Assembly: GCA_964016885.1 (NCBI GenBank)
Contig: OZ024743.1
Location: forward strand, 58,714,001 to 58,778,000
Direction of reading: 5' to 3'
Source of the DNA: Eledone cirrhosa
Lineage: Eukaryota
Length of the DNA: 64,000 nucleotides
The notes below the pieces were generated by a model. It did no database searches. It worked only from the letters and a program-made list of their open reading frames with translations, and was not told where the DNA came from. Made by a program: the position numbers and the translations under genes. Below are positions 13,987-49,696 of this stretch, one piece after another (positions within the stretch are counted from its first letter, which is position 1; every line of letters begins with the position of its first letter).

Positions 13987-14038
<52 letters not shown>

Positions 14039-14079
14039 GAGAGTAAAACAAAGAATCTTTTAATACATCAAAAGTTTTT

Positions 14080-14124
14080 ATTAGCCGACAATGTTTCGTC
14101 CTATTAAGGACTCATCAGGGCAAT
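14080..14124 (-). ncRNA. Type I hammerhead ribozyme (antisense copy)
   Basis: Reverse complement of 18589-18633. Confidence 0.92.
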
Positions 14125-14252
14125 CAAAACAACAAGAAGTAATATCGGCAGATACAAGCCGGAATCTCCGAAGAATATGGAGTGTACATACACTAAAGTC
14201 TTGCAAAAATATATGATAATAAAAATAAAAATAAAAATAATAAAAATATATA

Positions 14253-16710
14253 ATGAGAATAACTAAGGATGTATATAACATTAAGAACCATATTACAAAT
14301 ATAGTCCAAAGCAAAATGGACAAAAATGTTAGGTTTAGGCCAAATAATAGACATAGAAATTATAATAACCTTGATAAGTTCCAGTCCAGACTTAAAAATA
14401 TTGTTAAGGGTTTCAGTGAGAATAAGTCCATTCTTGTCCCGGCAGATAAGACTAAGAATCTAGACTCCATGGACTATAGTACATACCGCGATTTTATTTA
14501 TAAAGAGTTATATAGAAACTATAAAAAAAACTACGCTTGAGAATTTGAACCACACCAATAGTGAGGGCCTTAGAATAGTCTCTGACCTCGGACTCGATAA
14601 ATATACCCAGCCATATTACCCTCGAGAACCGAGATTCACACTTAAGGATCATAAGGTTGATTTTATTAGTAAACCCTCAGTTAGACTTATCTGTCCTTCT
14701 AAGTCAGATATAGCCATTATCAGTAAAAAAATCCTTGACCTTATTATACCAGATGTTAGGGATCAGGTTAATTTTAACCTATGGGGGAACACTGGGGAAG
14801 TTATAGATTGGTTCTCTGGGATTAATAGAATTGAATCTAATAAGTTTATCCAATTCGATATTGATGCCTACTACACATCAATTTCACCCATCCTCCTCAA
14901 TAAAGCCTTAATGTTGGCCATGAGAGTGTCCAGGCTTACACGATCGCAGGTAGATATTATACTAGCAGCCCGTAAAACTATTATTAAATTTGAGGACACA
15001 TTTTGGACCCGTAAAAACACGCCCAATAATTTCGACGTTACAATGGGTTCGAGTGATTCGGCCCAGGTTACTGATCTTGTTGGGTTGTTCCTCCTTAATG
15101 AACTATACGCTACCTTCCCGCACCTTATAGGCGGACTATATCGTGATGATGCATTGTTTGTAATTAACTCTAGCACCAACAATGTAGAACATAATAAGAA
15201 GAAGCTTTATAAGTTTTTTAAAAGCTACAACCTTTCGATCACGATAGATAGAAATGATAGAGCGGTTAACTTTTTAGATGTGACTTTGGACTTGGTCACT
15301 AATAGTTTTAAACCCTTCCATAAGCCTAATGAAATTCTTTCTTATGTTAGCCCCAACTCTAACCACCCTAAGTCTATGATAAACTCTATAATTAAGGGCG
15401 TATCTAATAGGATTTCCACACTCTCTAAGGACATAGGAACATTTAATGAACATGCGGAGTACTACAATAATGCCCTAGCATATTCAGGTCACTCTAGTAA
15501 AATAAATTATAATAATAGTAACCTTAGAAAGTCTCCGCTTACTCTTAATAATAATAACATTATATCATATAACATGGCCATGAATGGGAGTAGCAAATAT
15601 AGTAACCGTAGAAATTATATAGGTGTATCTGAACCCATCCATAAGTTAACCCACCGGACTCGTAATACCAAATATAATACCTCTAGGAGACAAGTTGAAC
15701 CCCCTGTGCGCTCACGCATTGGTGTTGGTTTTGCTGGATCTTATTCTAATAATGTTGCTCCTACTGATCCTATCATTGGCCCTAATCCTCTTGAAGGGAT
15801 TCCGGACAGCAGCAGATCTACTGGAGGTAGAGACTATAATAGACATAACGAAATTATGGCTGATTCTATGAATGTGGCTTCAACTAATCCTGATAGTAAC
15901 CCTAGTCTCGACGTTGGGACATTTGATAAAGGTAGGGTCGGTAAGAATAAAAATAAAAATAGAAGGCGATTAAATACTTATTTCAACCCGCCATACAATC
16001 AGGATGTATCAACTAATATCCCTAGATCTTTCTTCACTATCTTAGAGAAAAATTTCCCCCCTTCTCATAAATACCATGGTATTTTTAATAAAAATGTTAT
16101 TAAACTCTCATTCTCTACCACCCCTAATATTAGTTCTCATTTAGCTAGCACTAATAATAGGAAAATTAGGGATGGATTCTCCTCTCTACATACTACTAGT
16201 CTGAACGGATCTGACAATGCTTTACCACCAGAACAGTCCTTATCTAATAGAGGTCCTACGTGTAATACATCACCACTCGAGCCAACCAATAACACCCGGA
16301 AGTGCAATTGTAGAGTGAGTGCTAACTGCCCTCTAAACGGTAACTGCCTTTCTAAGAACATTGTCTACGCTTGCGAAGTTATAACTAATTCCTCTAATAG
16401 AACGTATATAGGATCTACTTCAAACACTTTTAAGACTAGGTTTAACTCTCATATCTCTAACTTCAAACATGTTAGGTTTAAGAATTCTACCTCTTTAGTG
16501 CATTATATCTGGGATCTTAAGGGAGCTTATATACCATATAGCCTTAACTGGCGTTTAGTAGCACGCTCTAACCACCTTCCTATAATTTTCTCTAGCGTAT
16601 CCTTACTTAATAGAAAGTCTGAGATATTCTCTTCTTGCCCCCACGCCATTTCTAATTCTTATTTTTATTATAAACCCAAACGTTCTAGTAGTACAAATTG
16701 TACCCATTAG
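14253..16710 (+). pseudogene. PLE reverse transcriptase-GIY-YIG endonuclease ORF with one +1 frameshift in the A8 run at 14523-14530
   Basis: ADKT, TLKDHK, FIQFDIDAYY, VTMGS, YRDD, FLDV, CNCRVSANCPLNGNC, IVY..YIGST; the C-terminal CxxC block seen in PLE2/3 is missing. Confidence 0.88.
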
Positions 16711-17621
16711 CAGATATATTCCATTACTTAGTTTTTAGTTTAGGTTCTTTTGTTTGCCAACATTATTGTTATCATCATTATTACCATTGGTTTTTGATGA
16801 CTCTTCATTCTAGCTCTCATTTGGCTACTGTACCATATCTATGTTTTCACTATTACACCTTGTTAATATATATAAGATTACACACTTTACGCCACTTACG
16901 TTATTCAATTATTATCTTTATTTTTATTTTTATTATTAATTTTATTTTTAATTCTATTTTTATTTTTAATTTTATTCAGATTCATCTTTGGATAACCCCC
17001 CCCCCCCCCCCACCCTCCCCCTTACCCCTCCCCCCGTGCGCACATAAACTTATTGTCAACCCCTCCAGATTGACTATGATTATATTTACCCCCCCCCCTC
17101 TTTTACGCTCCGTTCTATTATTTATTATAGTATATCGACTATATTTTATGCCACTTCGCATCCTCCATATATTTCATCAATTCTGTCCCCATTAGCCTAC
17201 CTTAATTCTACTTAAGTCAGTTTTTTAGTTATCGTTACGTATATGATAGTAAAAAATGTCATTCCTTTTTGTAAACATTTGTAACGAAACATTAAAGTTT
17301 ATAAACTTTAATGACTTAAACTACAGCTAATATTATACTACCCTATTCGATAGTTTTGATATTTTTAATATTAATTTATCAAATAGGGTTTTGAGTCAAT
17401 TAAAATGATTGTTTTCCTTAGTGTTTACCTAACTTCTTAACCTTATTTGCTTTTGTTTTGTAATTTCCGGTTGATTATATTTATTTATTTTATTCTATAT
17501 TCTATTTACTATTCACTGTCTGGCTTTACTTACACATCCACATATGTCTGTCTACAAACCTTGTAATTATAAGTATTTATATATTATTTTATGTCAATTT
17601 ATAATATATTATATTATATTG

Positions 17622-17808
17622 TATTGTAATATTGATCCTTATTACTTACTGTTCATTATATGTCACATTATGATATTTAAACTTTATATATCATGTGAGA
17701 TGTCTGTATTTTTGTAATATTGTAATATTGATCCTTATTACTGACTGTTCATTATATGTAACATTATGATATTTAGACTTTACATATAAGATGTAAGATG
17801 TTTGTATA
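17622..17808. repeat. ~96-bp tandem duplication in the PLE1 3' UTR
   Basis: TATTGTAATATTGATCCTTATTACT.ACTGTTCATTATATGT... at ~17622 and ~17718. Confidence 0.75.
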
Positions 17809-18588
17809 TTTTTTTCTGTACCATCATAATTTTTCCTGTACCATTATAGTGTTTTTTTGAGTATTATATAATTTAATTTTCCTCTTTTACTCTGTAACCC
17901 AGTATGAATCGATTTGTATATATTGTTTATTGTAAATGTTAGTACACTGTTAACATATTATCATTGTATTTTATTGTGACATCTATATTGTTTCTGTAAA
18001 TTAACCGGGTATTATCTATTATATTATATTGAATTATATAATTTTATTGTTTATTATTGATTATATGTGTCTCTTGTAATTATATCATATTATTGCCTCA
18101 TGTATATTGGGTAGATGTATTGGTATTATTTTCACTCTTATCATTCTTATTTTTATATTCAAACTTCTAATAAGGCTTAATTTGTGTAGTTGAACATAGA
18201 TGTGCGTGTTGTTATATATGTGTGTGTGTGTGTGTGTGTGTGAGCGCACATATATACATGTATATATTGTACCTTTTGATTTTTAATTGTAATTTTAATG
18301 TTGGTAAAGGTATATTATTATAATGTATTATGTTATATTACATTGTGTTATATATAATTCCTGCTCTATATAACCAAATTTGTTCAGATTTAGGTTAGTT
18401 GCTTTGGACTATATTTGTAATATGGTTCTTAATGTTATATACATCCTTAGTTATTCTTATTATATATTTTTATTATTTTTATTTTTATTTTTATTATCAT
18501 ATATTTTTGCAAGACTTTAGTGTATGTACACTCCATATTCTTCGGAGATTCCGGCTTGTATCTGCCGATATTACTTCTTGTTGTTTTG

Positions 18589-18633
18589 ATTGCCCTGATG
18601 AGTCCTTAATAGGACGAAACATTGTCGGCTAAT
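18589..18633 (+). ncRNA. Type I hammerhead ribozyme, canonical core
   Basis: GCC-CTGATGA-GTCCT taat AGGAC-GAAAC-ATT-GTC|GGC; predicted cleavage after C18626; minimal stem III. Confidence 0.93.
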
Positions 18634-18800
18634 AAAAACTTTTGATGTATTAAAGGATTCTTTATTTTACTCTCTTAATTTTTTGGCTCTGTTTAACTGC
18701 ATTGAGCTATACCTTTTACTGTCATTTCTATAATACGAAGAGGGTGTTTAACTCCAACACGCTCCAGTATTCTAATCCTTATATATATATATAGGATTTA

Positions 18801-20888
18801 TTGAAAACTACCATGGACATTAAGTTCAACAAACATAGAAATAATGAGCTGCAGAACAACATGAAAGCACTACTCCGAAGATTGCAAAATACCAATGGAA
18901 TTGTTGTGAAAGCTGACAAGACTTCTAACGTGTATACCATGGATATCGATACGTACAATAACTTCATACGCAACGAACTACACAAAAAATATAGAAAAAC
19001 AAATGAAACTACGCTAGCAAATATTAACAACGAGGCATATAAAGTGGTAAAGAATCTCAAGATAGACGATAGAACCGAGCCGATTATACCCGCTACCCCA
19101 CCTTCAACCTGAAGGACCATAAGGTAAATTTTGACTCTAACCCTAAGATTAGACTTATATGCCCTTCTAAATCAGACATAGGGAAAATTAGCAAACATAT
19201 ACTTGACAGAGTAATAACTCAAGTGAAAAAGAAAACTGAAATTAAATTATGGGGCAACACTAGAGAAGCAATTCGCTGGTTTAATAATGTTAAGAATAAG
19301 AATAAATCTAAGTTTATACAATTTGACATAGACGAATACTACTCTTCCATCTCACCAAGCACTTTACGTAAGGCCCTATCGTTTGCTAAGGCCAATTCCG
19401 ACCTAACGGAGGACGAAATTAATATTATTCTCGAGGCTAGAAAAACCATTATTAAGTTCGATAACTGCTACTGGGAACGTAAGGACAGACCCACAAATTT
19501 CGATATTACCATGGGTTCCAACGACTCGGCGGAGGTCACGGATCTCGTGGGAATTTACATAGCCCACATATTACATAGTAGATTTAGTAATCTACAGGGG
19601 GGGGGGGGGGATATATAGAGATGACGGGCTCTTATTAGTTAATAACATGAATAACCAAAATCTTGAAAGGCTACGGAAAAATATTAGAAAATCTTTTAGT
19701 GAACTGGGTCTAAAAATAACATATGAATACAATCTTAAAGTAGTAAACTTTCTGGACGTAACTCTTAATTTAAATACCGGACAGATACGACCCTTCCACA
19801 AGGTAAATGAGAACCTTACGTATATTAACTTTAACTCTAATCACCCACTCTCCATGATCAAATCAGTTAGAATCTCTCGCCTATCGTCTAACTCTGATAT
19901 TTTTAGTGAACATGCTGAGTACTACAATAATGCATTAAGGAATGCTGACCACCGGGATACAATAGAATATATCGATAGTAATTTCCACAACACACATAGC
20001 TCTACACGTAATCAAGGTATACGTAACCGGGGGACTAAAACACAAGCACACACACACGGTACTACCAGACATACTAATAATAGAAGATCACCACCAAATA
20101 AATCACGTTGTAGAAAGTATATCTGGTACAATCCTATTTTTAATGCCTCGATTAGTACAAAACTATCTCTTTCATTCTTTAAATTAATCAATAAACACTT
20201 CCCTAGTTCCCATAAGTACAGCAAAATTCTGAACTCTAAAACTATTAGACTATCATACTCCACGGCACCAAACCTTGAAGCATACATAAAAAAACTTAAC
20301 TTAAGGCAATTAAACAACTCTACAAAACAAAACATTTTAGTAACAGATGGGCAGAACGCAATATCTGCCTCCCAACCACTAAATGGGAGACGGGTATTGC
20401 ACAACCCACCTGTACCGCTATCACAACCTATCCATGGTATACCCGCTACCCACAACAAAGAATGTAACTGCCATCTACCTGAAAGATGTCCATTGCAGAA
20501 TGAATGCCTAAAGTCCAACATTGTTTACCAATGCACGGTTGAATCGAACGACCAGAAATGGTATTATATCGGATCTACCACCACATCGTTTAAATCTCGC
20601 TGGTACCGTCATCGATTCTCAATCAAACATCCGAATCACCGTTTTGTGACCACGCTCGCCAACAAGACCTGGCAACTCCGTGAACACAACCAACAGTTCA
20701 CCTTAAAATGGGATATACTTTCCAGCGCAAATGCATATCGGAGTGGATTGAAGTACTGCAGGTTATGTAACCTTGAGCTATTTTACATACTAAAATCCAA
20801 AAACAAACTACTTAACGATAGAATTGAACGATCATTATACTGCAACCACAAACTAAAAGCTAAATTATCTCACTATAAAATAACTTAA
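18801..20888 (+). pseudogene. PLE RT-GIY-YIG ORF with two homopolymer frameshifts (C4 near 19097, G14 at 19597-19610)
   Basis: ADKT, NLKDHK, FIQFDIDEYY, ITMGS, IYRDDG, FLDV, CNCHLPERCPLQNEC, IVY..YIGST, CRLC, CNH. Confidence 0.88.
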
Positions 20889-24268: not shown

Positions 24269-24365
24269 AACTCCTGCTAGCAGGGAAAGTGGACATTTAA
24301 AACAACGACCTGCAACATTTTAAATAGACTTTAGTCTATTTCCATGCCAGTATGGATTGAATGTG

Positions 24366-24412
24366 TGTCACTGATGAAAGATTAACTAATATTGAAACAA
24401 CACTGTCTGGCA
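24366..24412 (+). ncRNA. Type I hammerhead ribozyme (solo)
   Basis: TGTCA-CTGATGA-AAGATTA ac TAATATT-GAAAC-AACACT-GTC|TGGCA. Confidence 0.82.
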
Positions 24413-25313
24413 TCCTTGCGTGGACTGGCAACTCTGTTATATATTATTAGAGGAAAATAGAGACAAATAAATTGCTTTGTTACGAAAAAATAATTTTCTT
24501 TGATAGCAAGTCTACTAAAATGAACATGTTTTCATCTTCACCCCTATAATGCTTAAAAACGTAAGATAGAAATCTGATTTTATTTTATTGCTCTCTCTCT
24601 CTCTCGTTTTCTTGCTCTATCTCTCCTTTCTCTCTTACTTGCTGTCTCTCTCTCCCACTTCTACTCAATGAATTGCTATACAAGGTTCTCTTATTCGATT
24701 GTTTACATTCACCTACTCCCAGTATGTGAGTGGCCAGAAATAATTAAAAGTTTGAGAAACTTGTTGAAACTATAAAACGAATGAAATGGTAAAAATGCAT
24801 TACATAATGGAGTTGTGAAACAAAAACTATATTCTATACGACACTTAAAACATTTTAAACATCAAAATATTAAAACTTCATAAATATATTTTATACTCAT
24901 GAGTATTTCAAAACCACACAATCTAAACATGTGTTGATTAGCTACCTCAGCTTATAAACGGGTTTTCGACATTTGCCCATTTCTCAAGCATAAAATAGGA
25001 GTTTAGATTATATTTAGTTCAGTTGATATTTGAGTATATATGGTAATGTCACTGTTATGTCTAATTTAGGGAAAAGAGAAACAAATAGAGAGGATAACAA
25101 AATATTATCAAATTCTGGCTATCACTATATATGATTACCATATTGCTCTAGATTCAGAAACCCTAGAAAAAAGAAAAAGTTGTACCATTATATTAATGAC
25201 TTTCTGTTTCTATTTCAAATGACATAAACTCATTAAGCTCGAAATTATATATACATATATATACACACACACACTCAGACACATACACACACAAACACAC
25301 ACACACACACACG

Positions 25314-26354: not shown

Positions 26355-26404
<50 letters not shown>

Positions 26405-26698
26405 TAAAATAACAGAATAAAGTTTAAGCAAAGAAACATCGCTGTTTAACGGTGAAAGCAGTGATAGATATCTATTGTATTCAGGCCTCGAGAGGTAATT
26501 GGCTCCACCAGGTTTTAAAAATGCCCTAAAAACGCCATATGTTAATATATGGTTCCTACTACTCCCTCGGAAGCTACGGGTCCATACCATAGCATAATAG
26601 ACACACACATACATGTGTGTATGTATGTATGTATGTATGTATGTTTGTATGTATGTATGTATGTATGTATGTATGTATGTATGTATATATGTATGTAC

Positions 26699-27306
26699 GT
26701 CAGGTCACCAGTTGGTGCTACTGGTAACATGTATTCCAGTACAAGCTGTCCCATGGTCGCGTCGTTGGCGACTAAACTGGTAACCCCACCAAGGTTTCTT
26801 GGTGAGCAGGGTGACTTTGGACATCCTGCAAGACTAAAAGCAAAACCTGTCAAAGGGCAAAGGATCTCTTATGAGTCAATGGCCATCGAAAATCACCGGG
26901 AGAGACGACCCCTTACCCTTTGTCAAGGCATAATTCTAGGAGAAGGAAAACTCTGATATAACACCTGCAACCCTGATGGTATCCAATGATGTTGACTTGT
27001 TCTCCTTTTTGGTAAATATCATCTTGGTTAAGAGAGTGGGACTGGCTTTGTGCAGTCCCTTTGCTCACTATAAAAGCTTCACGGCACAGGCATTGCTTTA
27101 TATCTGGAGATCTCTCTGCACTTGTCATCACATGGTACCATGGGCCCAGCACTATGTGTCAGAAATTGTCACAAGTGTAGTGTTTGTACCAGAGTTTTCA
27201 AGTCGCTGGCTGGACAAAAAGTCACACTCGTTCAGCGCATCGGTAGGAGTTCTCCTACATGGATATAAAGTACTGGCCGTACTCGAAAACGAGTTGGCAG
27301 CCACCA
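26699..27306 (+). mobile_element. ~610-bp non-autonomous RTE-derived element, copy 1
   Basis: Highly similar to 49916-50524; RTE-like 5' motif CTAGGAGAAGGAAAACTCTGA; C2H2 remnant (frameshifted here); flanked by (TATG)n. Confidence 0.75.
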
Positions 27307-28299
27307 TGTATGTATGTATGTATGTATGTTCTTCTTGTTTTACCAATAGAGAGTCGGTTTCTAACATAGACACAAGACTCTCTCATTGGAATTTACACAT
27401 CAACTAGACAGATTATGTGTGCATGTCTGAATGCATGCATGTGTAGATATGGATGTTATTGTATGTGTGGATGTGTATGTTTTGAGTTGTATGTGTGCAT
27501 GTGTATATGCTTTGTATCTGTACATGTGTATATGCAGTTATTAGATGCAGAATTTTTGGAATGTTTTACATATTTTTACTGTTCCATTAATGGATTGTAC
27601 TTGTAATTTCCTAACTAGTTGTGTTCTTTCTGTTCCTGTGAAGCCTAGCTTCTCAAGATTTGTATTGAGGCAGTTACTACGTACATGTATGTATGTATGT
27701 ATGTATGTATGTATGTATGTATGTATGTATGTATGTATGTATGTATGTATGTATGTATGTATTTATCTATGTATGTATGTATGTGTACGTGAAATGAATC
27801 AACGAATAATAAAAAAAAACACACCTAGATTGTGAGGGTAGAAAAAAAATCAAATTTTGTGTGCTAAATTATGTTTTACAAATTACATGGAAGTTGGTGA
27901 AGATAAATGAAAGGTAGAACTTACATCAGATGAAGACGTAGGAATTTGGTAGGCGAACAATATTAGCAGAGCTGCGAGATTCATTCCGGTTGTCACTTGC
28001 CACTTCATGGTTGTAGCGATAATGGTGTGGTTTTCAGCAACATTTGCTACTTATATAGATAGAGGTACAAAGATAGACCAGTATATCGTCATGCCATTGG
28101 CTCCCATAGATAGATAGACAGATAGATAGATGAATTGATATGGGGGAGACAGAGAGGAGAGCTGAAGAGAGATAAGGATAGAGAATTAGCTGGTACATTT
28201 GCCATTGATCAGCAGAAATATACATAGACATATTCCCTAATTCCCTATGTCGACGTACATATACGCAACCAGACGGGTACGTCAAACACATATAATCAC

Positions 28300-28362
<63 letters not shown>

Positions 28363-28373
28363 GTGTGTTTGAC

Positions 28374-28435
<62 letters not shown>

Positions 28436-28767
28436 CGGAAATAATTCATGAACTTTCATTGGCCCTTGACTGATCCTCTTTCTAAACATTGACCCTAAGG
28501 CTTCCTCGGATATCTAGTGCTAAAATGATTTGTATTCTATCAGATTTCGCAGAGCTCAATCAACGTTGACTTTATAATCTGAGTCAAAAGAAAATACCGT
28601 TTACTTGTTTTATAATCGAATTAAAGAAACCCTTGAGGAATTTATGTTGGATTGAGCAGTTAACTACTTTGAAAACATTTCATTTAATAACAATTCATAA
28701 AATTGATGATTACTGAAATATTTCCGTCACTACCTTAATCTTGTTTATAAGTTCTTCACAATTCAAG

Positions 28768-28812
<45 letters not shown>

Positions 28813-28998
28813 TTCTTCTTCTTCTTCTTCTTCTTCTTCTTCTTCTTCTTCTTCTTCTTCTTCTTCTTCTTCTTCTTCTTCTTCTTCTTCTTCTTCTTCT
28901 TCTTCTTCTTCTTCTTCTTCTTCTTCTTCTTCTTCTTCTTCTTCTTCTTCTTCTTCTTCTTCTTCTTCTTCTTCTTCTTCTTCTTCTTCTTCTTCTTC
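28768..28998. repeat. Compound microsatellite (GTC)n(TTC)n
   Basis: Direct reading; explains the poly-F/E/R ORFs. Confidence 0.98.
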
Positions 28999-29830
28999 CC
29001 AAGAGGGTCGTTCTGGAAGATTCCTCAAACACTTTCTTCCAGGGGTACTGTCAGAAGCAAGCGTCTCCAATTGATCCAACTTGAACCCCCAAATGCGACA
29101 AGCCAAGCTCGTCGATGTTAACCAACCACCTTGCTTGGGGTTTAAACCTGGGTGTCCTGCGGGTTGATTTTGCTCAATTATTCTAGTTCAATTTGTTGTT
29201 GGTATATGTTTTCCTGATATGTTTTAATGGAGTCGCATGGCATCTCTGTTCGAGTGCTAGGCTTATAATCCGAATGTTAAAATTTGATTTTCCGGATCGA
29301 GTGTCAGATTGGGACCTTGTTTACAACACTTTATTTCCCGTTGCTGCAGTTTACTCAAGCAGACAATATGATTTGCAACGATCCTCGTTCCGTCTTTCCA
29401 TTGTTCAACATCGGCGACGTGAAAATGTGAGACGGGCTGCCTGTATGAGTATTTGTCTTCTCAAAACACTCAGCCTAATCTCATGCATCGCAGGGGCAAA
29501 TCCATAGAGAGGAAATCCTGCGGTGTATAATACATGGCAAATAGTGACAGATGGGGGTTCTTCTCTTCCCCTCATGTAGCTTTTCTTTTTACTTTGTTGA
29601 ACTTGTTTTTCTTAATCATTTAATTTGTAAAACTGCAGTGAGGAAAGCTCTATAGTGTTCCGGAGTACAAAATGATTTGTATTATGACTTTTACTATTTA
29701 ATCTTTGGAGGAAGTGATTAGACAGTAGAATCCTTGTAGAGACATTCATGTTCGTTAGTGCAGATGGATAACTATTCCTATGGGTGTATACACGAGCCAA
29801 ATATCCACAATGTAGCAGAATACGCTAAAC
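28999..29830 (-). mobile_element. Degenerate RTE LINE 3' end running into the (GAA)n tract
   Basis: Minus strand ...ARWLVNIDELGLSHLG...LETLASD....RKCLRNLPERPS resembles RTE/Expander C-termini; the upstream boundary is approximate. Confidence 0.5.
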
Positions 29831-30099
29831 GTTCTCAAAGACCTGAGTAAATTGGTGTTGAGCGACGGATTAAATCCCTCCAACAAGGGCAGAACCTGTC
29901 ATCGCGACGGGCTTCAAAATCACGATGACACTAAAAATTTAGGTCTAGTGCGAATTTGTGTGATTATGTATATGTTCGATCGAGGCAGACGTTAGACTAG
30001 GTAACAGCAGCAATAACAACGTTAAAAAAGGAATTGATGTTTCTTTATATTCATTGTATCGTATGTTTTATCTTTTCTATATGATATTTGTTACTATAT

Positions 30100-30425
30100 T
30101 ACAAACATCTTCTGAAGGTATCGCAACATAACTTTTGACGATATCTCCAAATATGTTATCAAGATATCCCACTAACCCTCCTAATGATGTCACAAAATAA
30201 TTTGCGTAGATATAGCTATATAACTTCTAAAGATATTAAATATGTTGTCAAGATAACCTAATACAACTTCTCAAGTTATCACAGGATAATACGTGACAGT
30301 GTCATAAAATATCTTCTGGTGATATCATAAAATACCTTACCAAGATATAGCAAAACACCTTTTGATGATATTAGAGAATAATTTCTGAAGATAAATCAAT
30401 ATATTTTCTGATGATATAACTATAT
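30100..30425. repeat. Degenerate ~22-bp minisatellite
   Basis: Recurrent TTCTGA.GATATCACAAAATAA-like units. Confidence 0.55.
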
Positions 30426-31323
30426 TTTCATATTGCTTTTTTAAAATTATTATTTAAGTGTGAATATTAGGTATAATGATTCGGTGAAGTGGATTGGATA
30501 CAGATGAAATTCAACTTCAATGTTGATGACTCTCCGACAAACATAGGAAGAGAACGAATTTCAGAGGTTAAGAGGGCAGGAATGTCTGAAGTGATGGACA
30601 TATAGTGTGGTGTTGAAATTAAATTAAATGAACAGTGGAAGAAAAATCGATGCATACTTGAGGCCACTGGGGTGTAGCTTGCTATTGCAATAAAATATAA
30701 ACGATCGTAGAAGACCTCCTAACCATCTCCTTTCACAAATCACTGTTCTTTTTTGAGGAGATAAAACTATCACCACTCAACAACGCATCAGGACCAAGAT
30801 TTGCTATTTTTAGTATTTCTGATACGAGACCGACCTCATTTTGACTAATAACAGCCATATATATATATATATATCCACCGAACTTCCGACTATTAAGGTT
30901 GATTTCCATGGGTATATCGTTACTTATAAAACAAATTTTGTATTTTATCTGATGAAAGCGCACCAAGATTGACATATATATAATAAAATAAATATGGCTT
31001 TATAAAAATAGTTTCCATTTATTAATATCTTTGAATACTTACTCCAGTAAACTGTTGAGTGCTCTATATCAGTTATAAACATTTATGTTTTTCGGAATTC
31101 CAACAAATCAAACACAACTTCTACATATATATGGTGTGGGTTCTGTATGTGTGTGCGGGTTTTTTTTGTGTAAGTGCTTGTATTTGTATACCTATGGCGA
31201 GTGTTTTCGCGTATGCTTGTGTATGTACGTATATGGATGCGTGTATGTATTTATTTCAATTACCTCTGTATTTTATTTACTTTATTCTTAACTCTGAAGC
31301 CGAGAATCATTCGGTTTCCCAGT

Positions 31324-31760
31324 TAGAATTTTAGTCTACGACTTCAGTTATACCATTTACGTGGTTTTGTCTTTGCGCGCATTTGTTCTCCCCGCTCCAT
31401 ATTATGACGTATTTTCTTCATTTTTTCATTGCCAGAGAACGTCTCCATGAATCACCTAATAGAATTTTAGTCTGCGACTTCTTTTATACCATAAACGTGG
31501 TTTTGTCTTTGCGTGTAATTGTTTTTCACCGCACCAAATAATTGTTTCTACTTTTGGCACAAGGCCAGCAATCACCCAGTACATCACTGGTACTTTATTT
31601 TATTGACCCCATAAGGAGGAAAGGCAAAGTTAACCTCGGCAGGATTTGAACTCAGAATGGCAAGGACCGTAACTCTATGCGTAACTCTATGCACTAAATA
31701 ATGACGTATTATCTTCGTTTTTTCCCGTTCTTTGCCAGGGAACGTTTCCACGAACCAAAG
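31324..31760. repeat. 137-bp tandem duplication whose second unit is interrupted by a SINE (~31541-31695, minus)
   Basis: AGAATTTTAGTCT.CGACTTC at 31324 and 31461; the unit resumes with ATGACGTATT at ~31700. Confidence 0.7.
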
Positions 31761-31910
31761 TATCGTCTTTCTGTCTTCCTCCTGTTGCAACGTTTTTTCA
31801 AATATTTACTTCTGCGTTCCCAGGTTGACTTCTTTAGTTTCAGAAGATCCCGTTAAGGGTGAAAGCAGCGATTGTTTGCTTAAACCTTAATCTGTTATTT
31901 TAATAAATAA

Positions 31911-31953
<43 letters not shown>

Positions 31954-32100
31954 AAATAGGATTTCGCTTCAACCACATCTTTATACAATATGTATAGATA
32001 TTTCGTATCTCCAAAGAAATACGGTTTTAGGAAGCCGTAGCTATGCAAACACCGGGGGGCTGACGCCCTCTGGTGATGTCCAGCAGAAGCAAGGCGGACA

Positions 32101-32144
32101 ACCGTCTATGCATTTCAGGCTTAACTGGCCTTCGTCAGGATGGT
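32101..32144 (-). ncRNA. Type I hammerhead ribozyme (minimal, palindromic stem III)
   Basis: ACCATC-CTGACGA-AGGC cagttaa GCCT-GAAAT-GC-ATA|GACGGT. Confidence 0.85.
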
Positions 32145-32420
32145 CCCTCCCACCGCTTGTGACTGCTGGACTAGAAGACAGGCGAGAATATATACTTTTT
32201 TCCTCTGTAAATGAAGCGATTAATCTCATTTGCATATGAAGCTGCATGAGTTGGCTCAACTTATAATGAAAAAGAAATCGGATTTCGCTTCATGCATAGC
32301 TTTATACAATTTGTATAAATATTTCGTATCTCCATGAAATACGGTTTTAGGAAGCCGTAATTATGCAAACAACGCGAGGCTAACGCCCTCTGGTGATGTC
32401 AAGCAGGAGCAAGGGGGACA

Positions 32421-32464
32421 ACCATCTATGAATTTCAGGCTTAACTGGCCTTCGTCAGGTCGGT
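32421..32464 (-). ncRNA. Type I hammerhead ribozyme, second unit
   Basis: ACCGAC-CTGACGA-AGGC cagttaa GCCT-GAAAT-TC-ATA|GATGGT. Confidence 0.75.
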
Positions 32465-32508
32465 CCCTCTCACCGCTTGCGGTGATGTCCAGCAGAGGCA
32501 AGGGGGAC

Positions 32509-32595
<87 letters not shown>

Positions 32596-32882
32596 ATAGA
32601 GTGCCGTTAGCTTTTGCTAAAACAATCTCTATACCTCTCATTTATATATGTTAGAGGTATCGGCTCTGGTCCAATATTCGTTGTTGAACTCTAGGATGGT
32701 TTTACGTGCGGTGAGGATGATGTGAAGTTCATCTGTGGTGATGTCAGAATATTTAAGTGCGAAAGATAGAGCATTATTGAGAAGTGAAGGCGAAATGGAG
32801 GAAAACATTTTTTGAGGAATTTAGGTTAGAGATTGTGTTCTTGAGATTTACAAGGTGCTCTTGTCCTTTGTAAGGGTATCTC

Positions 32883-34519
32883 TTGAATTTAAGATTCTTT
32901 ATTATTTTAGTTAATCAATTCGATATTGCCAGCTACTATTCCTCCATTTCGCCTTCACTTCTCAATAATGCTCTATCTTTCGCACTTAAATATTCTGACA
33001 TCACCACAGATGAACTTCACATCATCCTCACCGCACGTAAAACCATCCTAGAGTTCAACAACGAATATTGGACCAGAGCCGATACCTCTAACAACTTCGA
33101 CATCACAATGGGAGCATCCGATTCATCCCAATTGACTGATTTAATTGGTATCTTCATTTTGAACTCTTTGAGTCGGAAAATTCCTCAACTTCGCGGTGGA
33201 ATTTATCGTGACGATGGACTCTTTACTATCCTAAATTGCAATATAGTTAAACTTAATATTATTAAGAACAATATACGTAATCTCTTTAACCAACATAACC
33301 TAAAAATTGAATTTGATAATAGTATCAAACTAGCTAATTTCTTGGATGTATCTCTTAATCTTGACACTGGCCTATATTACCCTTACCATAAAAACAATGA
33401 TAATCTTAATTATGTTAACTTTAAATCTAACCATCCTACCAATATCAAGAATGCTATAGTTAATAATATTGGAAATAGAATATCTAACATATCTTCTAAT
33501 AAAAACATCTTTGATGCTAACGCCAATTACTATAATAACGCACTTTCTAAAGCCGGCTATCCAGATAAAATCAAATATAATAAAGAAACAAATTCTAGGA
33601 AAACTTACAGTAGAATAATTAATCATGACCATTCCAATAATTTTAATAAAAGACCTAGATACAAAAACATAATCTGGTATAATGCTCCTTTCTCCATCTC
33701 TATTAATAACAATATTCCTAAATTATTTTTTAGTGCCTTAAATAAATGCTTCCCTCCCTCACATATCTATAGTAAAATATTTAACAAACACACCATCAAA
33801 TTTTCGTATTCTACATCCTCCAATATTTCCAACATCATCTCTAAACACAACAACAAAATATTAAATACTAAATCTCTTCCTTCCAATATTGAATTTCATA
33901 ATAACAGTAATAGTACTCCCGACGTCATTGTAAACCCTAGGCTAACTTCTGTAAACCCAAATACAACGTCAAACACAACTTCGCTAAATGTTCATAATCC
34001 AACTCTAAATCAAGAAACTATTATTCCTATTATTCCTATCCAATTCCTTCTATAGATAACACTAGATCACTCATTAATAATCTCTCTAATTGCAACTGCC
34101 GCATTAAAAATAAATGTCCTCTCAACAACCATTGCCTCGATAAAAACTTAATTTATGAATGTAAAATTATAACTAGCACCAATTCCTTCACCTATTTTGG
34201 CTCCACTTCCACCTCTTTTAAAGCTCGTCTCTATAATCACCATTCATCTTTCAAATACAAACTTAAAAGAACTAACACTGCTCTCTCAGAACTCATATGG
34301 TCCTTAAAAGACAAAAACATTAAATATAACATCTTTTGGAAAAAGATTTCTTCTGCATCCTCATACTTGAACAGCTCTCTATCTAAAATCTGTAATCTCT
34401 GCCTAAATGAAAAATTTACCATTATCTCTAACCTAGAATCTATAATAAATAGACGCTCAGATTTGTTTTCTATCTGCCTGCATAAATTCCATAGAACTTT
34501 TCACAAAGTATACAGTTAA
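32883..34519 (+). pseudogene. 5'-truncated PLE RT-GIY-YIG ORF, one frameshift
   Basis: ORF 32883-34055 plus a downstream frame with the endonuclease motifs; the first ~11 codons come from inverted sequence. Confidence 0.85.
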
Positions 34520-34998
34520 TATTCAATTCTTTATCAATTTAGAATCTTTTCTCAAAGGCACATATACATACACCTCTTTAAAATATACCCATCTACCTTA
34601 CTTTAAAGGGCATTATACACTCTATAATACTCGTTTACTCATTACCCTCATTCTATCTTCTCGTAAAATAATAACATTTGTTTTTGACATTTTGAATATT
34701 CATCCGCAATCATTATTATTTTTTCTCTCTATCATAAATCTTTTTAATCTCAATTTCATCCTTAATTTATTATTATTATTTTTTTTTCTCCCCATCAACG
34801 AACTCATTATTAATACATATCAATTCAATATACAAACTTTAACTTCACATTATTTTTCTCAAATCCTTCTACACACAAACCTTAACATTTTTTCTCTTCG
34901 CTAATTTTGAAATTGCCACAATACATACATTTCTTCTTTTGACGTTAGAATATTCACCCACAATTATTATTTTTTTCTCTCTATCTTCATACATAATT

Positions 34999-35412
34999 TC
35001 CCTTCGTTAATTTTCAAATTCCTTTAATTTATACATTATCTTCCAACGGTTCCCAACCTCTCTATATTAAAACAATATATCTTTTTCTCAGTTATAAAAA
35101 CTATCTCTTTCTCTCTATCACCCATCTCTCCCTCTCCACCTTCACTCTCATCTCCTCCCCCCTTTTTTTCATCCTTTCCACCCCCCCTCCCTAAATAAAA
35201 TATTTTTTCCTCGCACATATCCTCCCTTCGTTAATTTTCAAAATTTTTAATTTATACAGTATCTTCCAACGGTTTTCAACCCCTCTATGTAAAAAAATAT
35301 ATCTCCTCTCAGTTATAAAAACTATCTCTTTCTCTCTATCACCCATCTCTCCCTCTCATCTCCCTCCCTTTTCATCCTTCTCCCCCCCCCTCTCTAAATA
35401 AAATATTTTTCC
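34999..35412. repeat. ~224-bp tandem duplication in the PLE3 3' UTR
   Basis: TCCCTTCGTTAATTTTCAAA... at 34999 and 35223. Confidence 0.8.
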
Positions 35413-35508
35413 CAATATCACACATCAATCTAAAACCACTTTTCATATGTTGATTTAAAACTGCACTATCAACAAGTGTTTTTTTAGCCTTCATATCATG
35501 TTCTCCTG

Positions 35509-35575
35509 TTTTATCTGATGAAAACACAAATATTATTGCTTGATGATGTTTGTTTTTGAAATGCGCATAATAAAA
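35509..35575 (+). ncRNA. Type I hammerhead ribozyme, AU-rich, AUA cleavage triplet
   Basis: TTTTAT-CTGATGA-AAAC..(36-nt stem II)..GTTTTT-GAAAT-GCGC-ATA|ATAAAA; stem III palindrome ATGCGCAT. Confidence 0.85.
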
Positions 35576-35776
35576 TATATAATATATAATATAAAATATA
35601 TAATAAAATATATGGAACTCCTTTAACCATCTTTTGATCTTATATTATGCATACTCCAGTCCCACAAACTGTAGAGTGCTTCTTATCCGATATCTGCATT
35701 GCTTTATTGTACTGGTGAGTTTTATTGTAGTACAATAAAGCAATGCAGATATCGGATAAGAAGCACTCTACAGTTT

Positions 35777-35950
35777 CGGCATTATTTGCAATATCGGTAG
35801 AGTGTTTTGCAGCAAAGTGTTACGGCCTTTTATGATCTGATTTCAAATCCCGCCCAGGTTAACTTTGCCTCTCATCCTTACGAGGTCGATAAAATAAAGT
35901 AACAGTAATGCAATGGGATAAATGCTGGCCTTGTGCCAAAAGTAGTAATA
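35777..35950 (+). mobile_element. tRNA-derived SINE (main family)
   Basis: TTGCAATATCGGTAGAG...GATTTCAAATCCCGCC.AGGTTAACTTTGCC..TCATCCTTACGAGGTCGATAAAATAAAGTA...GCTGGCCTTGTGCC. Confidence 0.8.
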
Positions 35951-37319
35951 ATTGTAATATAGGAAAATATATGCCATATCAACATCGTTGCTGCTGTTTG
36001 GTCGTTGATTGATGTAGCTATTACACTTTAGTTCACTGAGATATTTTCAGAATAAGATAGAAACTGTTAACCTCTCAATATCCTATACCCGCAGACACAT
36101 ACGGTGTCTATTTATCAAGAATGTTTCTCAATAACTTTGGTTTGGTTTATGAAACCTGTTCAAATTTAGACTGTATGTTTACAGATATTCAAACGTTGGT
36201 CATTTATATCTATTGTGTACTTAGTATTTTTTCTAATATAACATCTGACTATAATATTTACTAATTTCATCTTATATAACACCAACTTTGAAATATTTTC
36301 TTCATGACTGAACATATATATGTTCGAAAATGAATGACTAACCACTAAATTGATTATGTATGTAAACTATATGGAGATTTGCTTTGAATTCAATATTTGT
36401 ATTCATCACACAAAGAGAAATAATGATATGAAAATATTATTATGAAATCGTTTGATAAGTATTTTATTACTATATTTTATAACAGAAAACAAAATAATTG
36501 CCCAAATGTTGTTAAGTTCCAGTGTTCTATGAGTATCAAGTAATTCAAGCAATCATGATAATTTAATTGTGATTAACAGGAGTTACAAGTTTTATAGATA
36601 CAAGATTGATAGCTGTTCATATTATGGCACACAGTTGTGCAATTCACACTCCTTTCTTTATGTTGTGAAGCGATACGCTACAATTTCATCGGCTGTTTGG
36701 AATTGAGCAATACTTGGTGAGTCTTTAATGAAAGAAGAAACTAGCCTGTCTGATTCTAACTGAATCAGACCAAAGGTTTAAACACATCCTTCTTTTGCAT
36801 TTCAAACATTGTTTAAATATATGTTTATTTATCATGTGGACAAGATAAATGTTTATATTTCATAGTGGAAATATTATTCTAGCGGCTGTTCCGTGATTTA
36901 TGTATTTAGTGGTTAGATAGTCTTTGATATGATCTGATTAATTGCAGATTTTTATCTTTTATTCCATAGGTCGATTGATATTGTCCATAGTCGCAGTATT
37001 TTGTTGTTGTCCTAGTTTGCCTTTGAAATAAGGGCTTTTATAAACTTTTATACTAAAGTGCAAGGCTCTTATTCAATGCACAATTCTCCTTGCAGGAACC
37101 CGGTCACGTTTTAGTTATATATTTCTTGAACCACCTGGAATTTCGTGATGGGTAGTCATTTACTATGTATCAGCCTGTTTAATTTATTATGTGAAAACAG
37201 AATCGAGAGTCTGAAAATCGCAACACTTCATACTGGCCTAAAAAAATTATAGTTTCTACTATGGAATACGCATTCTTGCATATCATCAATAATGTGTCTA
37301 TATGTATCTCTCTCTCTCT

Positions 37320-37474
<155 letters not shown>

Positions 37475-37491
37475 AGATAGGAACGAGTAGG

Positions 37492-37587
37492 ACCCCTACG
37501 GCTGAGCTCAAGCCGTTTCGACGGCTAATTCTGGACTAAATGAACATTTTTATCCTGGTAAATGAATAGCCGAGCTTCTCAGGGGGT
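37492..37587 (-). ncRNA. Hammerhead-like motif, family D (CUGAGAA core)
   Basis: ACCCC-CTGAGAA-GCTCGGCTA...TAGCCGTC-GAAAC-GGCT tgagctc AGCC-GTA|GGGGT. Confidence 0.68.
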
Positions 37588-38908
37588 AATTCCATATATG
37601 GTAAAATGATTGTCACAAGGATTGGCCAAAAGTTTGTTGTTGAGACATAATTCTATCATGGCATTTTGTGGAAGGAAGGGGTAGCTGAACTTGCCAGTAG
37701 AAGAAAGAAGAGGGAGTGGAGGAAACGCAGTCGTGCGTTGAAAGTGACAACTATAGCATAATCCTACGGATAAGAGGTCAAGAGAAGTATACTAGAGAAG
37801 GGGAGAGGGAGGAAGTCGAAACAATAAGTAAATCTATATGGAGTAAATATATTGAAAAATAAGAATGTTAAAAATATTTAAAAAAAAAACACAATTTCTG
37901 GTTACTAATCCCCTACCACAATCATCAAATCTCTCACTGGTATTGCTAAACTATAGAAAAGTTTAATAGGTGGGACGGAATACTAAATACGAGATTGTAG
38001 TGAAATAATTTTATGAGTTAGTAGTAATCGGTCAAATCTATCTTACAATGACAGGTCAACAAGTAGGGTGCCAAAATACTAAAAAAAACTAATACGAAAT
38101 AATAATTCAGAGTCCCGAAACTAATACGAAATATTAATTCAGAATCCCGAAAATGAATACTAATACGATATATAAGAGTACCGCTACAATACATAAATTC
38201 TAATACAAACTACATAAATGCTCGTACGATATATATGAAAAATTTAATACGAAAAATTAATTCAGAATCCCCCCCCCCTCCCCCCAAAAAAATACTGATA
38301 TACGAGAAACTAAAGCAGAGATACCACTAAGAAATCTAGAAATCATGGAAATGGGGCAGCAATCAGATAAGAAAGCAAGTATCTGGGTCTAGCATATCTG
38401 CTATAAAGTGGAGTCGGCCAATTCTGCCATTGAATAGGGGGTGGGTTGGGGGTACTGAGGCTACAGAGGACCGACAGGCTGCCATGGGGTGGGCGAGAAG
38501 GTGAAAAGAGCGACGACAAAGAAGAACTGGAGTGGTAGGACTAGGAAGGGATGGGGGGAAGAAGGAAATATAGAGGAAACAATAAAAAATATATAAGAAA
38601 ATCTTCCGTCTTCCTTTATAAGCAGGGGTTACCCATTACAAAATCAGCAAGTGGGGTGTTACAGCCCTTGTGTACCCCCCCCCCGCCCTCCGCCGGGTCA
38701 TTATGGGGTTTGAGGGCGAGATAAGTCCTACGCAATATGTGTTTGCATGCAGTTACCAATTCTTCTTTCTTGTTTAGGAGTTGGTCCGTCGAGAACAACA
38801 TTTGTAATGTTTCCTCCGAGCATAAGTTACACGGATGGCGTCCTCCCGTGTAAGAGTTGGCTCTTATGACCAATCCTTGTGACAATCACTTTTACCATAT
38901 ATGGAATT

Positions 38909-39004
38909 ACCTCCTGAGAAGCTCGGCTATTCATTTACCAGGATAAAGATTTTCATTTAGTTCAGAATTAGCCGTCGAAACGGCTTGAGCTCAGCCGTCG
39001 GGGT
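38909..39004 (+). ncRNA. Hammerhead-like motif, family D (CUGAGAA core)
   Basis: ACCTC-CTGAGAA-GCTCGGCTA...TAGCCGTC-GAAAC-GGCT tgagctc AGCC-GTC|GGGGT. Confidence 0.68.
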
Positions 39005-39121
39005 CCTACTGGTTCCTATTGCTCACTCTACTACCTCAAGTATTGAGAATTTTGGTGTGTTAGGGTCCATCTGGTTCCTTACCACATTTCCTTCGTTATA
39101 TATATATATATATATATAATT

Positions 39122-39204
<83 letters not shown>

Positions 39205-39206
39205 TA

Positions 39207-40487
39207 CTTGCTTTATTAACCACAGGGGTTTACATAAAGTAGACATTAAGGACAGTACAGGACGAGACAGAACGGTACAAATGGGCATTTCTGCGTGTAA
39301 AAAAAAAAAAAACAGGGGATGTAACAAAAAATAACAATGAAACATTCCCCAATACGGGGGAGATTCCCGAAGTACATTCGTGGAGAAAGCCCATTAAAAA
39401 GCCACAGTGACCATGATCACCAGGGCAAGTACCCTCTCCCAGTTTTCCACCTTTAATTTAGAGACACATACTCAGAGTAGACCCATTCACTCGGGCTATT
39501 CTTGCCTCTCTCACACATCTTTCAACAAAATGCTGGGAAGAGAACACTTCCCTCTCTACCCTGATTTTCCTTTTCAAATGAAATTTGAAAAGGTTAATCA
39601 CGGCATCACCGAAGAGGTAAGTGCTCGTCTTCAGCCCTTTCAAACATGTCCACCATACTATCTCTTTCGCCATGGTCACCTGACAGATAAAAACTGCCTG
39701 CCCTACCCGGCTAAAGGAAATGGGGCGGGGCAATCCTAACGATGGACTCAGCTGATAGCTGGAACCGTCCTACACGCGACAGCAGGTGTTCGACAGAAAC
39801 CCACAAGTCAGAAATGCTCGGACACTGGTCGAGTGCGTGCAGAACGGGTTAGTCGCTCTGCGCGCATCTCGGACATACCCGGCTGACGGCACCTCCATGC
39901 TTGTAGAGTTTATCCCGAACTGGCAAAGCTCCTCGTTATCACTGCCAGGCCAGGGATTTCTGGAAGTTGTCCATAGGCCCCGGCCCGAAAGTTCTTCCGA
40001 AGGGATTGGCTAGTCGATTTTCGTCGACGCCTAGATTTTCCCCAAGTACGTCGTCGTTCTTCCCCTCCACTAATCCTCTATAGAACGCCAAGGTGGAGTT
40101 TCCACCGATCACATTGCCCGATTGGTCGAGGGCTGTGAGCGCCTGAAGACATTCCAGTCTCCAAGCGCTCCCTCTCGGTCTTCGCTTGACCCAGGACTGC
40201 AGAACCGTCAAGGAGACGAGCTGGGGTAAGACGCGTCTAGCAAAGGGCGACCACACCTGATCACCGTCGAGGAAGAGGTGGAGATGTCGTAGCCTGAGCG
40301 CGGGTCTGCGCATCATCAGCCACGGCATTCCCAGCCCTCCACGTAGCGGGTGTTGACAGCAGAAGGACCGCCTGACCATTGGAGCGCGTCCCTTCCACAA
40401 AAAGCGAAAGAGAAAACGCTCCTGCGCAGTCAGGCAGGGCTTAGTACAAGGTACGACGGTCAGGCTGTATTAGATGACAGACGCGAC
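39207..40487 (-). mobile_element. 5'-truncated Tx1/L1-clade LINE embedded in (TAA)n
   Basis: FRFLWKG...QHPLRGGLGMP; LPVRDKLYKHG..VCPRCAQSD..VLHALDQC zinc knuckle; AATAAA near the 3' end; (TAA)n at 39123-39205 and 40488-40505. Confidence 0.82.
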
Positions 40488-41051
40488 AATAATAATAATA
40501 ATAATGATGATTTTTTACATATTTAAAACAATTGTGATAGAATAAGTCTTATTACAAATGGAACATAAGATAACAGTCTTAACTCTCAGGAAGTGTCGAT
40601 GCATCAAATTATGGCATAGGGCTCCAATATTTAATATTTAATGTTGTACCAGAAATGTTTTAGTCAGAAAAGAAAATGGCTAGAAAACAACAGCCAAATA
40701 ACTTCACCACCAACACCACCACCGCCACCGTCACTATCACCATCACCACTATCACAAAAAAATCTAGCAAAATACAAACCAGCACTATCCCTACAGTACT
40801 GCTACCCCACAACCACCGCTACGACTGCATCATCGCTACCACCACTATTCCCTCACCACTTAAGAGACGGGTGGTGGTAGTGCCGCTACACATGATAAGA
40901 AGCGAGCAAGGTATCAAAAGATATAAATAGACTGAGTTAGTGACTCGGTCAAACAGCTAACAACAACACCAAAATAATTATGTTGTATTTCTAAATTATC
41001 TCAAAATGTTTAGTTTAAACGATGTCAAATCTAAACTATAATATAATAATA

Positions 41052-49350: not shown

Positions 49351-49696
49351 ATATATAAGATCAAAAAATGGTTAAATGAGTTCCATGTATTTTATTATTT
49401 GCATTTTAAAAACAAATATCATCATGCAATAACATTTGTGTTTTCATCAGATAAAATAGGAAGACATGACCACAAGTGTTTTTAACCTTCATATCATGTC
49501 TTCCTATTTTATCTGATGAAAACACAAATGTTATTGCATGATGATATTTGTTTTTGAAATGCGCATAATAAAATACATGGAACTCAATTAACCATCTTTT
49601 GATCTTATATATTATGTATACTCCAGTCCTACAAACTGTAGAGTGCTTCTTATCCGATATCTGCATTGCTTTATTGTACTACAATAAAACTCACCT
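49351..49696. repeat. Solo PLE3-family pLTR fold-back: 119-bp arms (49351-49469 / 49494-49612) plus tail
   Basis: Right arm and tail match 35470-35713; left arm is its inverse. Confidence 0.88.
49505..49575 (+). ncRNA. Type I hammerhead ribozyme (PLE3 family)
   Basis: TATTTTAT-CTGATGA-...-GAAAT-GCGC-ATA|ATAAAATA; the antisense twin at 49388-49458 has GAAA mutated to AAAA. Confidence 0.87.

Follow-up and report, generated by a model that had tools for sequence, protein, structure and literature searches.

The stretch of DNA analysed here (the window; 64,000 nucleotides of Eledone cirrhosa) holds, within a (TA)n run, what is quite probably a decayed and likely inactive copy of a 323-nt non-LTR retrozyme, likely copied from RNA into its target by Penelope machinery. 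The two letters that seem to repair its hammerhead stem on circularisation are, in this reading, two CpG mutations, likely separate events.

Organization of the locus

The features of the locus are given below in window coordinates; unit positions (+n) are numbered from the cleavage site.

31903..31951, no strand: (TA)n target at the 3' end of the element, from the sequence
31952..32106, minus strand: last partial unit, +1 to +155, stopping at the long ('tail') end used family-wide
32101..32144, minus strand: downstream type I hammerhead; its core and AUGCAU stem III are preserved, a CpG G>A at 32141 gives stem I a single A.C mismatch, and cleavage is predicted between 32107 and 32106
32107..32426, minus strand: full monomer between the cleavage sites, with 23 listed differences from the family's commonest letters
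32189..32194, minus strand: TATA-like word, with a counterpart at -30 in host U6 genes
32228..32235, minus strand: octamer ATGCAAAT; host U6 genes have the same or a one-letter variant at about -77
32421..32464, minus strand: upstream type I hammerhead, damaged; stem I A.A mismatch (32460), stem III AUUCAU (32431), CpG C>T at 32424
32427..32480, minus strand: first partial unit, about +270 to +323, without octamer and TATA
32481..32509, minus strand: 29-nt copy of unit +7 to +35, joined to +269/270, likely by a template switch across the paired rod
32510..32592, no strand: (TA)n at the 5' end of the element, from the sequence

What the preliminary description took for a dimer is instead a 29-nt fragment (+7 to +35), a partial unit of 54 nt, one full unit of 320 nt and a further partial unit of 155 nt. 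Its account of an ORF-less element within (TA)n held, with no ORF in the element reaching 120 aa and (TA)n on either side. A segmental duplicate situated 143 kb away (L062, L063; G000:C4:58879100-58898900) is 92-97% identical, covers at least window positions 26400-40500 and also contains the retrozyme insertion. We also observed that a very high-copy repeat at window 31700-31900 (contig depth about 10^6) borders the (TA)n run; the same repeat is found beside two other loci, L006 and L131.

Hammerheads and circle fold

The minus-strand type I hammerheads at 32464-32421 and 32144-32101 were recovered as described earlier, with cleavage sites 320 nt apart and the monomer 32426-32107 between them. 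Each genomic copy indeed has a stem I mismatch (ACCGAC/GATGGT upstream, ACCATC/GACGGT downstream), while in the predicted fold of the circle ACCAUC/GAUGGU makes a perfect stem I with pairing probabilities of 0.92-1.0 and a GGGA/UCCC extension. The palindromic AUGCAU stem III, on the other hand, is a property of the downstream hammerhead; the upstream one has AUUCAU as well as an A.A mismatch beside the core, which had been overlooked. The stem III duplex energy of the upstream with the downstream copy is -0.1 kcal/mol, compared to -6.7 kcal/mol for two palindromes. The term 'minimal hammerhead' does not suit a ribozyme with a 4-bp stem II, a 7-nt loop and a long stem I rod. The monomer length of 320 nt is true of the locus but not of the family, whose unit is 323 nt; the difference is decay of the locus copy. 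A search of Rfam returned no hammerhead match for the locus motifs or for an intact family copy.

The two intact hammerheads by which Li et al. define an 'active' copy are not present at the locus, where stems I and III are damaged upstream and stem I is mismatched downstream. The minimum free energy of the circle computed for the locus monomer was -78.2 kcal/mol (z -1.8), compared to -109.1 kcal/mol (z -6.2) for the family yardstick (60 shuffles). The locus fold ranked 33rd among the 37 complete genomic monomers, being worse than 32 of them. Given the damaged upstream ribozyme, the poor predicted fold and an upstream partial unit without promoter-like words, the locus copy would be an unlikely source of circles. 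Elsewhere in the window, hammerhead-like motifs of other families were picked up by pattern at 24365-24413 and 2090-2135.

The family and its subfamilies

Genome-wide we counted 483 exact 34-nt cores (reversed control, 0) and 1,709 looser cores from all subfamilies (control, 2), while the first-look candidates amounted to about 2,200-2,400 places in the genome. The analysis used 161 of 190 loci, since 23 overlapping loci were merged and six long loci omitted; L002 (the duplicate) and L177 (a local duplication) were excluded from most counts. The copies diverge by about 3-4% from the family's commonest letters, with which contigs from three sets of one sequencing study (kind unrecorded) agree. 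The family unit of 323 nt closes on itself and has a GC content of 44%. Complete monomers numbered 37 in the 161 loci, and head-to-tail arrays reached about 10 units. No ORF linked to the unit was found in the loci examined.

Two older subfamilies were recognised, an intermediate one and one that is 78% identical and has a closed 333-351-nt unit. Between the young (235 motifs) and the old (16 motifs) subfamily, two stem I pairs changed from C-G to U-A (in 14/16 and 9/16), and in stem II an A-U pair became G-C and a G-C pair became A-U (10/16 each). Over the whole predicted fold, 73 of 99 pairs were unchanged, 9 were changed on both sides, 2 on one side, and 15 were broken. Judged by this comparison, the hammerhead is genuine at the family level, with stems covarying between subfamilies. 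Stem III of the family has one pair and a palindromic tetraloop. A recurrent variant at unit +299 leaves the base of stem II with a U.U mismatch in 15 of 235 motifs, like that described for axolotl HHR_Amex2.

The family has a type I core and stems, head-to-tail units within 150-450 nt, no coding capacity and a self-paired predicted circle. It fits the non-LTR retrozymes on every feature that can be tested in DNA, cleavage and circles being predictions. The earlier assignment to non-autonomous elements of the retrozyme class is borne out by the closed 323-nt unit, the covarying stems and the lack of an ORF. Our literature search found no paper on cephalopod retrozymes; relatives may be listed in the supplements of PMC7229834 and of bioRxiv 10.64898/2026.07.22.740005. 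In the giant squid, 235 hammerheads were counted, according to the available text of PMC6962438.

Origin of the compensatory letters

The preliminary description proposed that the excised monomer rebuilds a better ribozyme on circularisation. We found that linear DNA of the family already has a perfect stem I (268 exact copies genome-wide) and that the letters of the locus are those of CpG decay, both changes being transitions at the stem I CpG pair. In a set that includes loci picked for the two stem CpGs, CpG transition rates were 5.0% and 4.3%, compared to 2.3% at other C/G positions; the unselected rates of change at the two stem I sites were 4/103 and 3/99. Copies with a single change were found as well (13 with ACCATC, 21 with GATGG), and no place was common to both lists.

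The 143-kb duplicate has ACCATC (G>A) like the locus, but GACGG, i.e., without the C>T; each of the duplicate copies carries a few private changes in the monomer unit. Since the duplicate shares ACCATC yet keeps GACGG, the C>T is most simply dated after the duplication. The two 'compensatory' letters are likely, from this comparison of sequences, ordinary CpG mutations in DNA that were separate in time.

That the genomic hammerheads are detuned by design, with the circle restoring a better one, is by comparison hard to credit. The circle does have a perfect stem I, and the pair of changes occurs in 2 of 38 monomers, of which the one in L026, chosen for its likeness to the locus monomer, has both in circle register; the units that flank it are without both changes, and its core is broken. 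However, a design of this kind has to contend with a stem that is perfect in family DNA, with the absence of doubles among 247 young-family hammerheads, with an upstream ribozyme that is broken and promoterless, with the poor fold, and with a duplicate that lacks one change and so contradicts it unless converted back. A compensatory ACCATC/GATGG subfamily was considered and rejected: only 2 exact copies exist genome-wide, both in the sister subfamily and none in the young family. The novelty that had been claimed, completion of a ribozyme by circularisation, does not hold. The trap is a general one, as CpG decay on both arms of a stem yields U-A pairs that look compensatory.

Insertion footprint

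The family insertions carry the footprint of Penelope: two kinds of 3' ends, a tail at one end, an inverted 5'-truncated arm and a (TA)n target. Two back-to-back arms were present in 70 of 104 loci that had not been picked for length, and in 37 of 60 hold-out loci. The 3' ends cluster near +117 and +157, about 40 nt apart, the short end falling at a hairpin loop of the predicted fold. Among insertions with two such ends, 42 of 46 had one long and one short end (p = 5e-9), and in the hold-out of 60 further loci one end of each kind was seen in 23 of 23. A TA run followed 174 of 225 canonical ends.

An inverted truncated arm together with a 30-40-nt tail at one end is given as the Penelope signature in the available text of PMC8557442, and the tail is explained in that of PMC11167929 as the stretch between two internal reverse transcriptase (RT) starts. 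Penelope-like elements likely mobilise the family, as far as the anatomy of its insertions tells. The proposal that the neighbouring Penelope-like elements did so was supported by this family-wide footprint as regards Penelope-like elements in general. It was not supported for the neighbour in particular; the adjacent element is missing from the duplicate and its hammerhead is unrelated.

The word CGAAAT occurs at unit +102 and +141 (window 32106-31952), 39 nt apart and 10-15 nt before each priming site; it is a possible recognition signal for the RT. The long end coincides with a T6 run, a possible Pol III stop.

Penelope-like elements and the question of an autonomous partner

Several Penelope-like elements were observed in the window. 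The one at 32593-35780 is frameshifted, with ORF pieces at 32874-34055 and 33998-34519, an inverted 5' arm, a CxCX5C linker and a hammerhead at 35509-35575 whose stem III, AUGCGCAU, is palindromic; 49507-49573 holds a related end. In the duplicate this element (about 32593-35780) is absent, and 1.6 kb of other DNA takes its place. Further elements lie at 14034-18679 and 19073-20888. The former has 281-nt inverted repeats at its ends, each with a hammerhead (14084-14124 and 18589-18629), and is probably young, since the repeats are 99% alike.

The Penelope ORFs of the window have the CxCX5C linker, a feature given for the (TA)n-targeting Hydra clade in the available text of PMC8557442; this placement is a comparison of linkers rather than a tree. 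Pfam produced only sub-threshold GIY-YIG matches, in 2 of the 4 Penelope ORF pieces.

No autonomous partner sharing sequence with the unit was found in the window or in the sampled loci (about 300 of some 2,000+ places). Two candidates or sets of candidates were discarded. L030 has, at 270-1501, a GC-rich and inverted fragment of Penelope RT/GIY-YIG that is fused directly to unit +4; it shows no second family hammerhead within 9.9 kb and is possibly one chimeric two-armed insertion made from two RNAs. The Penelope neighbours in L230/L258, L223/L259 and L228/L260 are pieces without a family-like hammerhead.

We regard it as improbable that the unit is a pseudo-LTR, or a 5'-truncated end, of a coding Penelope element outside the sample. 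The end signatures are all those of Penelope, an inverted RT fragment adjoins the unit in L030, and among 57 Xenopus retrozyme families, 24 have ends that match known elements, nearly all of them Penelope-like, according to the available text of bioRxiv 10.64898/2026.07.22.740005. However, arms extending upstream keep within the unit and come round to the preceding hammerhead, and the older subfamily is likewise a closed 333-351-nt unit. Penelope protein matches occurred in 10 of 161 loci and none continued an arm in sense; an RT/GIY-YIG ORF continuous with the repeat, the finding by which the preliminary description would have given up a separate element, was seen in 0 of 161 loci. These counts come from a sample of about 300 of the 2,000+ places.

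Putative internal promoter

The octamer ATGCAAAT is located at unit +193 and TATATA at +236 in the young and old subfamilies alike. Among distinct upstream regions of host U6 genes, 3 of 5 carry a TATA at -30 and, at about -77, the octamer itself or a variant differing by one letter, with a spacing of 46-48 compared to 43 in the unit. Variation is lower in the octamer block than around it (1.4% vs 3.6%). When the unit was aligned with U6 upstream regions, the old subfamily against L261 was the single case in which the octamer match exceeded those of shuffles (1/300; young subfamily, 71/300).

By the U6 geometry, transcription would start at +266. Of all 4-nt windows, +265 to +268 collected the most 5' stops, with 12 of 233 arms from 10 loci where 3.4 would be expected (Poisson p = 2e-4; local scan p = 0.08), in an arm list that had been seen before the test. 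In the hold-out, 3 of 81 stops, all at 266-267, compared to 1.1 expected (p = 0.10). The motif match and the stops are suggestive of a U6-like internal promoter with a start near +266. At G000:C19:31780605-31840331, more than 30 U6 genes were noted in tandem, spaced by about 1.8 kb.

Circular or linear template

Among 30 matches anchored on +1 to +35, none began at the cleavage site, and the 5' stops did not pile up there. The RT therefore read through the cleavage site, and the template was circular or uncut. Derived letters were shared by 10-17% between units of one locus, compared to 2.3% between loci. In a three-way comparison, 21 variants occurred in every copy, 8 (6 distinct) were confined to the same pass of the two arms, and 2 and 2 showed the other patterns; a linear template or gene conversion would account for the same-pass-only variants more readily than a circle. 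None of 100 tests for pass-specific variants was significant (best p = 0.027), and the search for scars of A-to-I editing showed no A-to-G excess (0.72% vs 1.23% for T>C). Stops after exactly one turn were rejected as evidence for a circle, being uninterpretable when both arm classes stop near both priming sites.

One long array was found, about 10 units head to tail in L191 (3131-6435; G000:C2). It is satellite-like, with blocks of shared variants, signs of DNA-level shuffling and the same private stem I change throughout. This array is not the master, as its private change is present in only 2 of 250 dispersed segments.

It is rather unlikely, in our estimate, that the family was never circular and that, as a SINE-like, non-autonomous derivative of Penelope, it was copied from a few master arrays by way of linear, uncut transcripts of several units. 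In vitro, Penelope works mainly on uncut RNA (in the available text of PMC11167929), the 12 arms ending at the predicted start include both arms of L090, and six same-pass-only variants and an array of roughly 10 units exist. Such an origin is at odds with the rarity of the L191 change among dispersed segments and with the lack of a pass-specific variant in the 100 tests. Many two-site arms, moreover, pass upstream of the predicted start and would need trimers, which are rare, and related elements of coral, mussel and axolotl form circles, as reported in the available text of PMC7229834. A circle would explain the multi-turn arms most simply.

Proposed cycle

The reading that we prefer for the locus comes with a proposed cycle for the family. 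Transcription would set in near +266, driven by the octamer-TATA block inside the unit. The transcript would be cut by hammerheads acting as dimers, as is known of this class when stem III is palindromic, and the monomer would be ligated into a highly paired circle. The microsatellite would be nicked by a borrowed Penelope RT/GIY-YIG enzyme, whose clade is probably Hydra, the one that targets (TA)n. Each DNA end would be primed at a different one of two RNA sites, which lie about 40 nt from each other; this would give the single and back-to-back arms whose anatomy was described above, and a minority of the templates may be linear primary transcripts. Beyond this, we put forward tentatively, as possible though short of probable, a long-lived lineage of circular RNA in which each unit has a U6-like promoter and a dimeric Penelope enzyme copies the circle, less often the uncut transcript, from two fixed sites. 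If this is true, the genome would preserve both priming sites, the start of transcription (as 5' stops at +266/267) and a succession of three subfamilies whose ribozyme stems covary.

Comparison with known systems

In the available text of PMC7229834 (Cervera and de la Pena 2020), metazoan non-LTR retrozymes are ORF-less units of 170-400 nt with a type I hammerhead, a GC content below 50% and a highly paired predicted circle in which the ribozyme is free. The family resembles them in unit size, hammerhead type, GC content and predicted fold. Its stem III, of one pair and a palindromic tetraloop, is like that of newt satellite 2 and of axolotl HHR_Amex1; the latter is cleaved efficiently only in dimeric form (PMC7229834, available text). 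The family differs from the metazoan retrozymes of that text in consisting mostly of dispersed arms of 1-2 units rather than long arrays, and is known here from DNA alone. Penelope tails and back-to-back arms, both features of the family, were not found described for metazoan retrozymes in the same available text.

With newt satellite 2, which carries an snRNA promoter (as cited in PMC2220036), and with the schistosome hammerhead SINEs the family shares a hammerhead repeat of about 330 nt and an internal promoter of the small-RNA type (as cited in PMC2220036 and PMC6765202); unlike theirs, its promoter is a motif match to host U6 alone.

The family shares with anole Poseidon (PMC11167929) and the Hydra clade (PMC8557442) two internal RT starts, a 30-40-nt tail at one end, the inverted 5'-truncated arm and AT-rich or (TA)n targets, as far as the available texts of both describe them. 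It differs from these Penelope elements in having no ORF, a self-closing unit, a full stem II and a long stem I.

Li, Clavereau and Pollet 2026 (bioRxiv 10.64898/2026.07.22.740005, available text) proposed, mostly for vertebrates, that retrozymes are the non-autonomous partners of Penelope-like elements, and found 8 of 9 predicted genomic dimers inactive in vitro. Their case is built on co-occurrence and pLTR homology, whereas here no homologous pLTR was found and the case is built on the insertion footprint. Penelope mobilisation of animal retrozymes, so far proposed in the available sources from co-occurrence and homology, thus gains support at the level of individual insertions, with candidate priming and start sites named.
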